Positions 10,841-56,806 of a stretch of DNA of 64,000 bases are shown here, in pieces (within the stretch, counting starts at the first letter, position 1; each line of letters opens with the position of its first letter). A program made the position numbers and the translations under genes. The notes beneath the pieces are model-generated. The model was not told the origin of the DNA. It searched no databases and was given only the letters and a program-made list of their open reading frames with translations. Origin of the DNA: Vulcanimicrobiota bacterium (GTDB lineage: Bacteria; Vulcanimicrobiota; Xenobia; Xenobiales; JADMJV01); NCBI GenBank assembly GCA_050250895.1, contig JBFWNU010000001.1:1806884-1870883 (forward strand), read 5' to 3'.

Positions 10841-10917
10841 GGGGTTATAGCTCAGCCGGTTAGAGCGCATCCCTGATAAGGATGAGGTCCGTGGTTCGAG
10901 TCCACGTAACCCCACCA
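10841..10917 (+). tRNA. tRNA-Ile (GAT)
   Basis: Acceptor stem GGGGTTA/TAACCCC, anticodon arm CATCC-CTGATAA-GGATG, GTTCGAG T-loop and encoded CCA. Confidence 0.97.
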
Positions 10918-10993: not shown

Positions 10994-11069
10994 GGGGCCA
11001 TAGCTCAGCTGGGAGAGCGCCTGCCTTGCACGTAGAAGGTCGTCGGTTCGAATCCGACTGGCTCCACCA
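10994..11069 (+). tRNA. tRNA-Ala (TGC)
   Basis: GGGGCCA/TGGCTCC acceptor stem with G3:U70, anticodon TGC, GTTCGAA and CCA end. Confidence 0.95.
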
Positions 11070-11111: not shown

Positions 11112-11777
11112 CTAGGTGCAGTTGCTGCAGCAGAAGTACTCATCCTGGGTCGGAGTGTAGGTAAAGCCTCCGCACAGAGTCACATCGAGCTGACTGGCAT
11201 TGGGTCGAGCGATGGCGCAATTGACGTTGACCGAGGCCGGCTGAGCTGCGCTGAAGTCGACGCAGATCTGAAAATCAGCGCTGTCGGTGGCACATGACGC
11301 CGATTCGGGCAAGCGACCGGCGCTGCAAAAGCAACTGCCATCGCAGGCGCCAGGGTTGCAGCAGCACCTGCAGGTGGTGGCGGCGTTCGGGCAGGGGAGG
11401 CAGGGGGTGGGATCGTCTCCGCAGTCGAAGGTGCAGCCACTCGAGGCCGCCGCCGGTTGGGGCAGGGCCACGGTGGCAATGACAGGCAGAGCAGCCACTT
11501 TTCCCCACCGCGCGAGGAATTCGCGTCGACCTAACGGGGGTGAGTCGCTCTCTTCGAGCAGGCCAAGTTTCTGAAACTCGGTCACAGCCAGGGCCACCGT
11601 ATCAAGCTCTAGAGCCTCGGCCATCCCCAGGCACGATCCGTCACAAGCTCTGAACACCTCGGCCGCGCTAGCGTTCAGACTGTGAACCTGGTGATTGTGC
11701 GGGTCAAAAACCAGTAGTTCGTCACCCACCTGCGAGAAAACCAAAGCCGCTTTGCGTTGGGGCATCCGTCGGTCCAT
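11112..11777 (-). CDS. PqqD/RRE-domain protein with twin-arginine-like leader and Cys-rich C-terminus (putative RiPP-like precursor 1)
   Basis: VGDELLVFD..VHSLNASAAEVFRACDG (PqqD fold), then GRREFL..LPVIATVALPQPAAASS, then 18 Cys. Confidence 0.8.
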   Translation of the reverse strand: MDRRMPQRKAALVFSQVGDELLVFDPHNHQVHSLNASAAEVFRACDGSCLGMAEALELDTVALAVTEFQKLGLLEESDSPPLGRREFLARWGKVAALPVIATVALPQPAAASSGCTFDCGDDPTPCLPCPNAATTCRCCCNPGACDGSCFCSAGRLPESASCATDSADFQICVDFSAAQPASVNVNCAIARPNASQLDVTLCGGFTYTPTQDEYFCCSNCT

Positions 11778-11932: not shown

Positions 11933-12613
11933 ATGCTCATCGACAACTGCTACGGGCGCCAGCCCTTTCGCCCCGTCTACTGCCGCCATTTCGCGGCGCC
12001 GACGCCGCCCATGCTCGACACCTTCACTCCGAGCGACCCCTTGGCCGTGGCCCCCACCCTGGTGCTGCTGCCCCAACTGGTGGCCACCGCCCCTCCGCGC
12101 CGACGTCCCCAGTTCACGGGCTTTGCCCCTCGACCCCAACAGCTCTACCTCGACGACGCCGTCCATCTCAATAATACCCGTCGCCAGCTCGAGGGTTGCG
12201 AGTCCGTCCAGTTGGCGACCAGTCTCAAAGGGGTCTATTCCCGGCAGCTGATCGGCCGGTTGCCCGGCTTTCAAGACCTGCGCCACCTGCGCGAGACCAA
12301 TAACGGCCAGAACAATCTGTGCGCGAACTTCGTCTCGGCCATCCTCGAGAAAACCCAGGGTTTGAAGGGCCACTATATCAGTGTGCCACGGCTCGAGCGG
12401 GCCCTCAACGAGCAGGGTTGGCACCCGGTGGCCCGCGGCCAGGCGCGACCGGGAGATGTCTGGCTCAGCGACGGCCATGTCGAGCTGGTCAGTCGTGAAG
12501 GCGGCACCCACACCATCGGCAGCAACAATCTGCCCGGCCAGGCGGTCCAGCGGGTGTCCGAGCGGGCCAAGCCGCCGGGGCGCGGGCGCTACTACACTCG
12601 CAGGACCCTTTAG
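11933..12613 (+). CDS. NlpC/P60- or CHAP-like cysteine hydrolase domain protein
   Basis: NLCANFVSAIL, RPGDVW, GHVELV and IGSNN (Cys-His dyad pattern); AAGGAG RBS. Confidence 0.55.
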   Translation: MLIDNCYGRQPFRPVYCRHFAAPTPPMLDTFTPSDPLAVAPTLVLLPQLVATAPPRRRPQFTGFAPRPQQLYLDDAVHLNNTRRQLEGCESVQLATSLKGVYSRQLIGRLPGFQDLRHLRETNNGQNNLCANFVSAILEKTQGLKGHYISVPRLERALNEQGWHPVARGQARPGDVWLSDGHVELVSREGGTHTIGSNNLPGQAVQRVSERAKPPGRGRYYTRRTL

Positions 12614-12635
12614 CACTCATGCCAAAAATGGCAGA

Positions 12636-13883
12636 GTGAGCGAGCTGGAGCGCTATCTCTCGGCCCAGAAGGCGCTGGGTAACCGAGATTCCCAGGGTTT
12701 CTTCACCCTCGACCAGGGTCGGGCCCTGGCCAAGATTCGCGAGTATCAGCTGGCTTCGCCCCACGAGTTCATTCTCAAGTTGGTAGCTTCGGCGGTCGCC
12801 GCCGGGGCTACCTATTTTCATATCGAGCAGTCGCGAACTCGCCTGTTGATCGAGCGCGACGGCCGGGCTTTGACCTTTGACGAGCTGTCGAACATCTTTT
12901 CGGCGGTGCTGGTGAGCCAGGCCAACCCCGAGGTGGCGGCGGTCCGCGAACTGGCTGTCGGGCTCAACGGGGCGCTCCATTTTCGACCGCGCTGGGTGCA
13001 GGTGATCTCTTCGTGCGAGCACGGCTCGGTCCGGCTGCGCCTTGATGGAAATCAGCTGACCGTCGAGCGCTTCCAGGGGGCAACCCACCAGCGCGAGTTT
13101 CAGGGCTTCGGTTTGGAAGAAGACTCGGTGGACCGGACCTATTTCGAGCTGGAGGGCATGCAGCGTTCTCCCCTCGAGTTGCTCAAAGGAGTCGTCCAGG
13201 GGGCCGGAGAGATCGTGGCTCTGCGTCAGCGAGCTGCCCTTTGTGGACTGAAGGTCAAGCTCAACGGCGCCCCCCTGGATCTGACCCCCGATCTGGGCTC
13301 CCCCCTGATCGTTACTCGCAGCGGCAAGCCCGGGGTGCGCTTGCCGAAGGTGCGGGTCAAGGCGCCGGTGTTGAGTTCCACCTTCGAATTTCCTGAGGCC
13401 GATTATTGCTGGCTGGCCCTGCAACCCAGGCCCGACAGTCAGGTCGAGGTGGTGCTGCACGGCGTGGTTTATCCGGCTCGCTTGAAGTATGCCTGTTTTG
13501 GCCTGCAGGCCATCGTCAGCGTGCCCGGCCTCTTGACCGACCTGAGCGGCTCAGCCGTGGTAGAGAACCCGGCCTTCGAGGCCGTGCTCGAGACGCTTTC
13601 ACACCAGATCGACGGGCTGGTGACCCGACTGACGGCGGGTCTGGAGCGATTGGCTATCGAGTCGCGACTCGAGGCCACCGACCTGCTCGACCACTACGCG
13701 ATCAATTGTGTCGAGAACGGCCAGCCCGAGCGAGCCGAGGCTATCTTCAAACGGCTGCGGGCGGTGCGCACCGGCGCGCTGACGGGACGCTACGACATGG
13801 CCGAGCGCTTTGCCCGCTGGTCGCGCCACTATCGCGACCGCGGCGTGGCCAGCGAAGCCTCTTACTACTACCGCGGGCTCTAG
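12636..13883 (+). CDS. Hypothetical protein with a degenerate GHKL/HSP90-like N-terminal region
   Basis: DSQGFFTLD..ALAKIREYQL..FILKLVASAVAAGA resembles the GHKL ELVQNAxDAGA helix without the Asn/Asp. GTG start inferred. Confidence 0.5.
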   Translation: MSELERYLSAQKALGNRDSQGFFTLDQGRALAKIREYQLASPHEFILKLVASAVAAGATYFHIEQSRTRLLIERDGRALTFDELSNIFSAVLVSQANPEVAAVRELAVGLNGALHFRPRWVQVISSCEHGSVRLRLDGNQLTVERFQGATHQREFQGFGLEEDSVDRTYFELEGMQRSPLELLKGVVQGAGEIVALRQRAALCGLKVKLNGAPLDLTPDLGSPLIVTRSGKPGVRLPKVRVKAPVLSSTFEFPEADYCWLALQPRPDSQVEVVLHGVVYPARLKYACFGLQAIVSVPGLLTDLSGSAVVENPAFEAVLETLSHQIDGLVTRLTAGLERLAIESRLEATDLLDHYAINCVENGQPERAEAIFKRLRAVRTGALTGRYDMAERFARWSRHYRDRGVASEASYYYRGL

Positions 13884-55982: not shown

Positions 55983-56579
55983 CTAGGGGCAGATGAAACC
56001 GCTGGCGGTTGGAAAAGGGGCGACACAAGGCGTCCCCACCGACACGCAAATGTAGTAGAACCCATTTGTTCCTCCCCCGCAGGCGGTGTTACAGAAGCCA
56101 CCGTCGCCCCCGGGTGGGCAGGCCGCGACGCAGGAGGAAGTTCGACACTGGGTCTCCCCAGAGGAGCAGGCGCCACCGCCTGACTGGCACTGATTCGCCC
56201 CAACACAGGTCCCAACCAGGGGCCCGCTGTCGGCCGCGGCCGGTTTTGGCAAAGCCACAGTTGCCACGAGGGCTGCCGAGGCCACGGTTTTGAGAAACTG
56301 GCGTCTCGGAGCGTCGTCGAAAGCGATGAGCTCAGCTCGGCTCAATTCCAGCAAAGCGTGTTCGAGTTCGAGCGAAGAAAGGGTGGTGAGGGCCCTTTTG
56401 AGGGCTTCCAAATCAGGATGGGCTTGGGCTGCCTCATAGACGCTGGCCGCTGGCTCACGAAGTGCGTGGACACAGAGCGCAGACGCGTCGTAGATAAGAA
56501 GCTCGTCCCCCACCCATTGGCCAATCAGGCCACGACGGAGCTTTATTTTCATGATGTCAGAATTATTTGATGACATCAT
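55983..56579 (-). CDS. PqqD/RRE-domain protein with twin-arginine-like leader and Cys/Gly-rich C-terminus (putative RiPP-like precursor 2)
   Basis: VGDELLIYD..VHALREPAASVY, then PRRQFLK..LVATVALPKPAAADS, then 11 Cys. Start may be 56552. Confidence 0.78.
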   Translation of the reverse strand: MMSSNNSDIMKIKLRRGLIGQWVGDELLIYDASALCVHALREPAASVYEAAQAHPDLEALKRALTTLSSLELEHALLELSRAELIAFDDAPRRQFLKTVASAALVATVALPKPAAADSGPLVGTCVGANQCQSGGGACSSGETQCRTSSCVAACPPGGDGGFCNTACGGGTNGFYYICVSVGTPCVAPFPTASGFICP

Positions 56580-56590
56580 GACACTTCCTG

Positions 56591-56806
56591 CCGGCTCGCG
56601 AAGCTCGGTTTGGAGACGGAGCGGCCCTGCGGCCGAGGTCTTCGCGCGAAGCGCCCGGCTGTTTCCTAGCGGCGTCAGCCGCTCTCCTTGTCGTGTGCCA
56701 GGCCGAGGTCTCCGCGCGAAGCCCACGGCTCCCTTTCCCTGCGGCGCAGCCGCAGCTCCCCGTCGACGCGCAGCGTCGAAATCTCAGCCGCAGGCTGCTC
56801 CCTGTT
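56591..56806 (+). repeat. Modular palindromic intergenic element, copy D
   Basis: CTAGCGGCGTCAGCCGC, GGCCGAGGTCT, GCGCGAAGCGC, GTCGACGCGCAGCGTCGA and TCTCAGCC..GGCTGCTCCCTGT are shared with copies A and B. Confidence 0.85.

Follow-up and report, generated by a model that had tools for sequence, protein, structure and literature searches.

Architecture of the gene at 11112..11777

The window analysed here, a 64,000-nucleotide (64-kb) stretch of contig JBFWNU010000001.1 from a Vulcanimicrobiota bacterium, lies in a 9.5-Mb assembly of 17 contigs and carries on its minus strand, at 11112..11777, a gene that encodes three parts in a single chain: an N-terminal domain with the predicted fold of a RiPP (ribosomally synthesised and post-translationally modified peptide) recognition element (RRE), an internal leader of the twin-arginine translocation (Tat) type, and a Cys-rich C-terminal domain. 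We refer to this gene as copy 1, and to a second gene of the window with a related N-terminal cassette as copy 2. The features of both are listed below; sites outside the window are given with a contig (C) or locus (L) handle.

11112..11777, minus strand: whole open reading frame (ORF) of copy 1, ATG start, 221 residues plus stop; from the ORF list, GC content at the third codon position (GC3) and an ortholog
11538..11777, minus strand: RRE/PqqD-fold domain, residues 1-80; from an AlphaFold2 model, VIA-align 2 and PqqD matches in paralogs
11439..11534, minus strand: internal twin-arginine leader, residues 82-113 (LGRREFLARWGKVAALPVIATVALPQPAAASS); from TIGR01409 and PF10518 matches in paralogs, conservation of the RR pair and a leader logo
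11523..11528, minus strand: twin arginine R84-R85; first R invariant and second nearly so in four family alignments
11484..11486, minus strand: Pro98, 15 residues ahead of the invariant Ser in the logo; candidate RRE-docking motif
11439..11441, minus strand: Ser113 after A-x-A, at +2 of a signal-peptidase-type site; candidate phospho-acceptor by analogy with Ser3 of LppA
11115..11438, minus strand: Cys-rich C-terminal domain, residues 114-221, 18 Cys, presumed exported cargo; from the model, ortholog identity and a shared end motif
55983..56726 as listed, minus strand: copy 2, with a Gly/Cys-rich tail of 80 residues; probable ATG at 56579, giving 198 residues; 87 bits against the family profile

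Copy 1 is a genuine gene by its ATG-initiated frame, its codon usage and its conservation. Its codon-position GC contents are 0.61/0.55/0.70, with the maximum at position 3, where GC likewise peaks in two neighbouring genes, those for IMP dehydrogenase and adenylosuccinate synthetase, and an ortholog 76% identical over the full length is found in a public metagenome-assembled genome named Candidatus Eremiobacteraeota bacterium. The ORF contains VGDELLVFD, VHSLNASAAEVFRACDG, GRREFL, LPVIATVALPQPAAASS, CRCCC and CCSNC, the strings from which the first-pass annotation, made from the letters alone, had read the three-part layout; that layout stands, as does its count of 18 Cys in the core (17 in the last 106 residues plus the Cys of SSGC), to which we add the strand that it did not give. 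Copy 2, whose ORF as listed matches TAT_signal at E 0.0057, resembles copy 1 solely within the N-terminal 111 residues (41/111 identical, E 6e-12), and the two tails show no significant match to one another.

The N-terminal domain

Assignment of the N-terminus to the PqqD/RRE group holds by sequence at the level of the family and by predicted fold for copy 1. The Pfam PqqD model (PF05402), proposed as a check in the first-pass annotation, matches 15 of 20 paralogs at E≤1 (best E 1.3e-11), but copy 1 itself, at 18.1 bits and E 0.0034 over profile positions 1-30 of 67, stays under the cut-off of 23.4 bits. Among NCBIfam models the domain is matched best by TIGR04353, found in 16 of the 20 paralogs at E≤0.1 (best 1.5e-5) and in copy 1 at 19.8 bits for the ORF and 21.9 bits for the cassette, below the equivalog cut-off of 35 bits.

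An AlphaFold2 model of copy 1, built from a 68-row alignment, reaches a predicted local distance difference test (pLDDT) score of 85-96 across most of residues 1-80, which are modelled as three strands followed by helices. Structural matches from VIA-align 2 span these 80 residues and are led by the lasso B1 protein 6jx3_B (Z 9.2, root-mean-square deviation 1.9 Å over 73 residues, model 4-76), with 5v1u_A (TbiB1) second at Z 8.8, followed by the RRE-containing NisB, TigE, 4v1t (a heterocyclase), PbtF and PqqD. RRE proteins also rank first in Foldseek, yet at E≥0.06, and the copy 1 model returned nothing there at E≤0.001. The N-terminal domain of copy 1, as modelled, thus has the winged helix and three-stranded sheet that characterise solved RREs.

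The twin-arginine leader and the invariant serine

The RR pair of copy 1 sits at residues 84-85, behind this folded domain and not at the N-terminus, and the domain upstream of it must be translated because it is conserved in the paralogs and in the ortholog. Tat-signal profiles match the paralogs (TIGR01409 in 11/20, PF10518 in 5/20), bearing out the internal Tat-like segment noted at first reading. Among the 151 best representatives of the family the pair is RR in 147, RK in 3 and KR in 1; the copy 1 motif is G-R-R-E-F-L-A against a family consensus of S-R-R-x-F-L, and the h-region that follows is ~16 residues long and moderately hydrophobic (mean hydropathy 1.52 over the same 151). The genome has the corresponding machinery, with a single TatC homolog (213.9 bits) alongside three homologs of TatA/B/E, although TatC was found in 144 of 151 genomes of a phylum sample and its co-occurrence with the family is uninformative because it is nearly universal there.

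The leader ends in a strongly patterned segment. In a logo of 166 sequences anchored on the Ser of A-x-A-x-S, from which 13 leaders lacking that motif had been set aside, Pro occupies position -15 in 138, Ser -11 in 111, Pro -7 in 149, Pro -5 in 105, Ala -4 in 134 and Ala -2 in 162, with Ser at position 0 in all 166 as the anchor column; this Ser is also invariant in the paralog alignment. The leader carries A/L-x-x-P, with no aromatic residue before the Pro.

Models suggest that this segment docks on the fused domain. In that of copy 1, the leader forms a helix over residues 84-91 and a strand over 100-104, the strand with pLDDT near 68. The cargo-less member P0026 (124 residues, ending at the invariant Ser; 149-row alignment) was modelled at pLDDT 84.7 and a predicted template modelling score (pTM) of 0.77, and its leader strand, 111-115, comes right after the conserved Pro with a block mean pLDDT of 81; all remaining strands of this model belong to the RRE domain. 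For both proteins, then, AlphaFold predicts the cis-docking of leader on RRE that had been suggested as a structural check, and the leader strand would pair with the sheet of the fused RRE, the partner in that pairing being our reading of the models.

A dispersed family with diverse cargo

An iterated profile of residues 1-115, run over all six-frame ORFs with at least 60 bits required of a full member, recovered 28 full members in this genome at 72-138 bits, far beyond chance, together with three fragments. A dispersed family with a constant cassette and diverse tails, as first proposed from two copies, is thus present on a larger scale than the window reveals. The fragments comprise a leader and Cys core lacking PqqD and RR (C1:3779151-3779762, plus strand), an RR and leader lacking PqqD and with nearly no tail (C2:177841-178338, plus strand) and a PqqD N-terminus alone (C8:193935-194249, minus strand), and are probably decayed paralogs. 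Some members of this genome (C1:261242-262342, C5:350208-351260, C2:258998-259975 and C1:3821820-3822761), and representatives of ~300 residues such as P0003-P0005, have an extra N-terminal stretch containing a second profile match, which suggests a duplicated winged-helix or PqqD-like half. No promoter motif is shared by the 28 upstream regions: no 8-mer occurs in more than three of them, and shuffled sequences give 3-4.

Within the phylum sample, 36 of the 151 genomes contain a family match, with 28 in this genome and 1-6 in the others, counts that may be low since at most 30 candidates were scored per genome. Against 1.84 billion representatives of 50% identity clusters, the cassette profile matched 9474 at E≤0.001; at the stricter E≤1e-10 there were 4946, a good many from Acidobacteriota. 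A pattern scan of one genome per species picked out 481 candidate stretches, of which 386 proved to be relatives; the 78 retained loci come almost entirely from Acidobacteriota (Blastocatellia, Pyrinomonadaceae), with single records from Nitrospinota, Binatia and Bryobacterales.

What lies behind the leader varies in kind. The tail of copy 1 has 108 residues and is modelled as beta-rich, with pLDDT 73-91 over residues 140-215. By manual count it is identical to that of the ortholog at 97/108 positions (90%), against 68/109 (62%) for the cassette, and it is therefore a conserved domain and not the hypervariable peptide that the first-pass annotation had supposed. The description of the paralog's core as unrelated is right for the copy 1 and copy 2 pair but does not extend across the genome, where 17 of the 28 cores, that of copy 1 included, share the C-terminal motif C..AR...[YF].CC..C; a profile of the copy 1 core matches 19 of 147 family tails. 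(A 22-tail cluster obtained by BLAST single linkage of the cores is distrusted, composition having been left uncorrected.) Among the tails of the 151 best representatives, 117 have at least four Cys, 32 have at most one and 12 are no longer than 12 residues, and in some members the invariant Ser is the last residue. The term 'peptide core' does not cover all these tails, because the cargo elsewhere includes whole domains of extracytoplasmic type: a YfbK-type von Willebrand factor A (vWA) domain (YfbK_C E 7.5e-69), an SH3b domain and collagen repeats. Other tails are Thr/Pro/Gly-rich and stalk-like, and those of the tandem members C1:897351 and C1:897834 are Thr-rich. The tails of two phylum relatives (L060:7517-8437 and L061:7632-8528) start with C-[VL]-L, end in S-H-N and look Hint/intein-like by eye, with no such Pfam match at E≤0.05.

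Association with a kinase and a nucleotidyltransferase

Partner enzymes emerged from the gene context of relatives. For this genome, the three called ORFs to either side of each family gene (161 in all, called with a crude GC3-based gene caller) were scanned with Pfam and proved mostly housekeeping or without assigned function; for the relatives, 84 of 122 selected neighbour ORFs were scanned. Neither these 161 nor the 84, nor the conserved genes of the acidobacterial operon described below, included a radical SAM enzyme, YcaO, LanM/LanC or a peptidase-C39 transporter, which extends to all the family's loci in this genome the earlier remark that no radical SAM enzyme is adjacent.

What recurs instead is a pair of other enzymes. 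Across 20 loci of phylum relatives, a nucleotidyltransferase of the NTP_transf_5 family (PF14907) lies near 8 and an HprK_rel_A-like kinase near 6, either being near 10, and MauE-like genes adjoin a family member in 2 of the 20. In the 78 mostly acidobacterial loci, profiles built from the relatives' neighbours place the nucleotidyltransferase in 34 and the kinase in 24. In the acidobacterial operon, HprK-like kinase, family gene and NTP_transf_5 nucleotidyltransferase follow one another, tightly spaced, on one strand: the kinase precedes and the nucleotidyltransferase follows, both on the family gene's strand, at 18 of the 58 family ORFs flanked by 2.5 kb or more in each direction, with the nucleotidyltransferase alone at 10, the kinase alone at 3 and neither at 27. 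Median gaps from the family gene to the kinase and nucleotidyltransferase are 43 and 33 nucleotides, and such same-strand gaps suggest co-transcription. TIGR04352 is the best NCBIfam match of the kinases that adjoin family genes. Several loci have two or three family genes per enzyme set (L080 has three).

Further conserved neighbours in the operon are a TPR/CBM protein and one of Wzy_C type, beyond which lie genes for polysaccharide export. After the kinase/family/nucleotidyltransferase operon in 20 acidobacterial loci (for example L110:2406-5792) comes a 1129-residue protein with a Peptidase_C25 (gingipain-family) domain, a candidate processing or attachment enzyme.

In the present genome, the best HprK_rel_A match (C1:899180) adjoins the tandem members C1:897351 and C1:897834, which sit with a methyltransferase, two sulfotransferases and this HprK-related kinase (C1:898832-899752). 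The expectation of a paralog beside maturases is thus borne out to the extent that one tandem pair keeps a kinase, and not as regards enzymes of the radical SAM, YcaO or LanM type. Maturation by enzymes encoded elsewhere fares similarly, in that potential partners do exist elsewhere in the genome but are an HprK-like kinase and an NTP_transf_5 protein, not of the thioether-forming or radical SAM type.

The remaining kinase and nucleotidyltransferase genes of the genome belong to clusters with many glycosyltransferase and sulfotransferase genes, and two of these clusters are lasso-like. The first, C9:225000-242000, encodes a subtilase, a rhodanese, a MauE-like protein, two HprK-like kinases, an ABC ATPase, a methyltransferase, an NTP_transf_5 protein and a lasso-cyclase-like asparagine synthase (NF033535 E 1.8e-59, below cut-off), along with a family-related PqqD protein that has neither RR pair nor cargo (C9:236165-236665). 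It may be a phosphorylated-lasso-type cluster, and its PqqD protein may be the nearest discrete-RRE relative in the genome. The second, C1:3472000-3485000, has an asparagine synthase, a canonical PqqD (E 7e-21), a 2-oxoglutarate (2OG) oxygenase, four sulfotransferase-family ORFs, a GT8 protein and HprK-like matches.

A proposed mechanism and its alternatives

We propose, with confidence that we would call evenly balanced, that these proteins are precursors carrying their own RRE, in which the Tat leader doubles as the segment bound by the RRE, a Ser is modified, and the cargo is exported and cleaved. In copy 1, the segment after the conserved Pro (P98-V-I-A-T-V) would dock as a beta-strand on the fused RRE, and docking would offer S113, which lies 15 residues further on, first to an HprK-like serine kinase and afterwards to a nucleotidyltransferase of the NTP_transf_5 family. 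The two enzymes would be encoded elsewhere in the genome and would act in the cytoplasm, phosphorylating and perhaps glycosylating the Ser. The protein would then be targeted to TatABC in an N-in/C-out orientation and cut at the signal-peptidase-type site A-x-A|x-S (A111|S112 in copy 1), and the Cys-rich domain, whatever role it may play there, would be released outside the cytoplasm. That the family protein would be a substrate, rather than a chaperone or adaptor, is favoured by the number of paralogs per enzyme set (three at L080; 28 copies in this genome against 1-6 in others).

Several observations weigh against this proposal. Neither PF14907 nor TIGR04352 has a match in the 64-kb window, where copies 1 and 2 are without either enzyme nearby, and within three ORFs per side neither enzyme was found at 26 loci of this genome, except at L026 and the non-Tat copy L044. 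The solitary copies of this genome may no longer be modified; copy 1, whose architecture is plain, may be served in trans or may have become an ordinary exported protein. The HprK-like matches score at most 64 bits against an NCBIfam equivalog cut-off of 200. The PDB sequence-profile search gave no RRE and instead weak winged helix-turn-helix (wHTH) regulators at E≥0.0096, and kinship to solved RREs is for this reason a matter of fold only. AlphaFold may pack any hydrophobic segment on a domain when no membrane is present, and the leader does not have the Y/WxxP aromatic residue of lasso and LPP (linear polyphosphorylated peptide) leaders. Lastly, no signal-peptidase-like leader peptidase appeared among the Pfam matches of the scanned neighbours and conserved operon genes, although no search was directed at Peptidase_S26/S24; a housekeeping signal peptidase could carry out the cleavage.

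A bolder version of the same idea, which we advance tentatively and consider doubtful, is a covalent Tat checkpoint, in which the cis-RRE would hold the leader and permit targeting and cleavage only once the Ser had been phosphorylated, and perhaps glycosylated. Cargo under such control would range from knotted peptides of 20 residues to domains of 470, and in this genome would amount to a 28-member arsenal of exported Cys-rich proteins.

The competing explanation that survives best, although we judge it unlikely, is that these are plain Tat-exported proteins in which the fused PqqD-like domain is a built-in proofreading chaperone that masks the signal until the cargo has folded, with no covalent modification at all, and that the enzymes encoded nearby in other phyla serve some other process such as exopolysaccharide synthesis. 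Predicted cis-docking of the h-region suits masking, some Tat signal peptides are known to be bound by chaperones of their own (TorD, DmsD and NapD), and the gene context is also compatible: the majority of this genome's copies are solitary, 27 of the 58 well-flanked acidobacterial copies have neither enzyme, and the operon lies among Wzy_C, polysaccharide-export and glycosyltransferase genes. A signal peptide, however, needs neither an invariant Ser two residues past A-x-A nor a Pro fixed 15 residues upstream of it, the same-strand gaps of 33-43 nucleotides point to co-transcription with both enzymes, and members that end at the Ser have no cargo to chaperone.

Less probable still is that the proteins are single-pass type II membrane proteins with an uncleaved signal anchor, the winged-helix domain having an adaptor or regulatory role (it might signal, for example, or hold the kinase and nucleotidyltransferase at the membrane) and the tail as an extracytoplasmic sensor or decoration. 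The prolines conserved in the h-region, its length of ~16 residues and its hydropathy of ~1.5 make it short for a stable anchor, even though a positive RR on the cytoplasmic side fits an N-in/C-out topology. Stalk-like Thr/Pro/Gly-rich tails, the 12 of 151 best representatives with tails of at most 12 residues and the weak resemblance of the RRE winged helix to DNA-binding regulators would all fit an anchored adaptor; the A-x-A (Ala -4 in 134/166, Ala -2 in 162/166) is the signature of a cleavage site, and several paralogs per enzyme set suit substrates more than adaptors.

Finally, a classical RiPP precursor whose Cys-rich core is cross-linked, through thioethers or similar bonds, by distant radical SAM or lanthipeptide maturases recruited by the fused RRE would account for the RRE fold, the 18 Cys and the large number of paralogs whose cores differ, but is very improbable given that none of the scanned neighbour ORFs or conserved operon genes encodes radical SAM, YcaO, LanM/LanC or peptidase-C39 proteins, that no more than one Cys is present in 32 of 151 tails and other cargo consists of vWA, SH3b or collagen sequences, and that the core is predicted to be a compact beta-rich domain more conserved between orthologs than its leader.

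We return to the self-carried RRE as our working proposal. If it is true, it would represent a natural fusion of a peptide-modification recognition element to its own substrate, and a general export signal that doubles as a recognition leader. It would name a substrate for a catalogued but unexplained gene set of HprK-related kinase, PqqD protein and nucleotidyltransferase, and would open up a very large family of small exported disulfide-rich proteins (the 4946 clusters at 50% identity with E≤1e-10).

Flanking genes and other observations

Copy 1 is flanked by a tRNA pair on one side and by unannotatable ORFs on the other. Directly past its stop lie tRNA-Ile(GAT) at 10841-10917 and tRNA-Ala(TGC) at 10994-11069, both on the plus strand; this is the usual rRNA-spacer pair, here apparently standing alone. 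The adjoining 500-residue ORF at 12381-13880 (plus strand) has no Pfam or NCBIfam match, and NCBIfam likewise gave none for the unannotated neighbour ORFs of the window. It has a 763-residue paralog (L022:4046-6334, minus strand) beside another family member, C1:274765, but the two are arranged differently and the pairing may be chance.

Two further loci deserve mention. An ORF of 1598 residues with four Annexin repeats (C2:584003-588796, minus strand; Pfam E 1.7e-52), unusual in a bacterium, adjoins a cluster in which glycosyltransferases and nucleotidyltransferases occur together with an HprK-like kinase. Immediately upstream of C1:3821820, another family gene (region C1:3814800-3829800), lie genes for MksE/DUF4194, an SbcC/Rad50-like ATPase and JetD_C, a combination that suggests a Wadjet-type system.

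Comparison with known systems

Parts of this arrangement have precedents. Nif11/NHLP precursors such as the prochlorosins resemble the family in their many dispersed genes, domain-sized leaders, diverse Cys-rich cores and enzymes encoded elsewhere; unlike it, their leaders are not RRE domains and end in GG for a C39 transporter, and their cores are short peptides. TorD, DmsD and NapD are cytoplasmic and bind the Tat signal before export, as proposed here for the RRE, but are separate proteins of other folds. Actinobacterial Rieske proteins show that a Tat motif can work internally, although there it is preceded by membrane helices and not by a soluble domain. Literature searches pairing PqqD, RRE or RiPP with twin-arginine, screened by title and abstract, found no description of the fused architecture, and the paper listed for PF14907 concerned phosphonates.

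The HPr-rel-A system of NCBIfam (TIGR04352, HprK-related kinase A; TIGR04353, PqqD family peptide chaperone) has the same gene trio. All scores of the present family fall under the equivalog cut-offs, and TIGR04353 is a model of 74 positions that covers the PqqD domain only; a literature search on HprK-related kinase found no paper on the system.

Phosphorylated lasso peptides (paeninodin with PadeK, pseudomycoidin with PsmK/PsmN) are similar in combining an HprK-family kinase, a Ser of an RRE-recognised precursor and an NTP transferase (PMC6993621). As described there, PsmK phosphorylates the C-terminal Ser of the lasso peptide and PsmN, an uncharacterised NTP transferase, is needed for the appearance of a hexose on the phosphorylated form (PMC6993621). 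The lasso acceptor is that C-terminal Ser (PMC6993621), a position that the Ser of the present family takes solely in its cargo-less members. Lasso B1 is also the nearest solved fold to the RRE of the family. Lasso systems have, in addition, a cyclase and a B2 protease, neither of which lies beside the family's genes. We take PsmN to belong to PF14907.

The closest characterised system is that of the LPP clusters (Popov et al., Nat Commun 2026; PMC13381572), known from Bacillota and situated in capsule loci. These comprise a discrete RRE (LppB), an HprK kinase (LppK), an NTP transferase (LppN), a signal-peptidase-I-like leader peptidase (LppS) and an exporter, and act on precursors of 35-200 residues with a conserved N-terminal motif and variable C-termini. 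The LppA leader is cut three residues ahead of Ser, Ser3 is polyphosphorylated, and the unphosphorylated precursor is cut poorly (PMC13381572). Measured against this account, the two systems are alike in their lasso-B1-type RRE, HprK-like kinase and uncharacterised NTP transferase, in a conserved leader followed by variable C-termini of up to protein size, in having one to three precursors per enzyme set, in a conserved Ser by a signal-peptidase-type site, and in their placement at polysaccharide loci. The spacing from Pro to Ser is 15 residues both in the LPP motif (PMC13381572) and in 138 of 166 family leaders, which may be coincidence.

They differ in that the RRE is fused to the precursor N-terminus here and is a separate protein there, that the leader is of twin-arginine type here and has a YxxP motif there, and that the conserved operon of this family, unlike LPP clusters, showed neither a SipW-like peptidase nor a pump of the MsbA type. 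The family is spread over Eremiobacterota, Acidobacteriota and others, with 28 mostly solitary copies in the present genome, whereas LPP clusters are those of Bacillota. In the text of PMC13381572 accessible to us, 'twin-arginine', 'Tat' and 'Acidobacteri' do not occur and natural RRE-precursor fusions go unmentioned. The statement in the first-pass annotation that this architecture had no functional characterisation thus still applies to the fused Tat form, for which we found none, but must be qualified by the 2026 characterisation of the unfused, non-Tat LPP system (PMC13381572).

The fused RRE-Tat-leader family is, then, apparently undescribed, with LPP as its closest characterised relative in kind, and what is new here is the fusion of the RRE to its substrate, the Tat-type leader, the protein-sized cargo and the 28-fold expansion. 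Should our proposal hold, chemistry of the LPP type, so far confined to peptides of Bacillota, would reach protein-sized cargo in Acidobacteriota, Eremiobacterota and other soil phyla.

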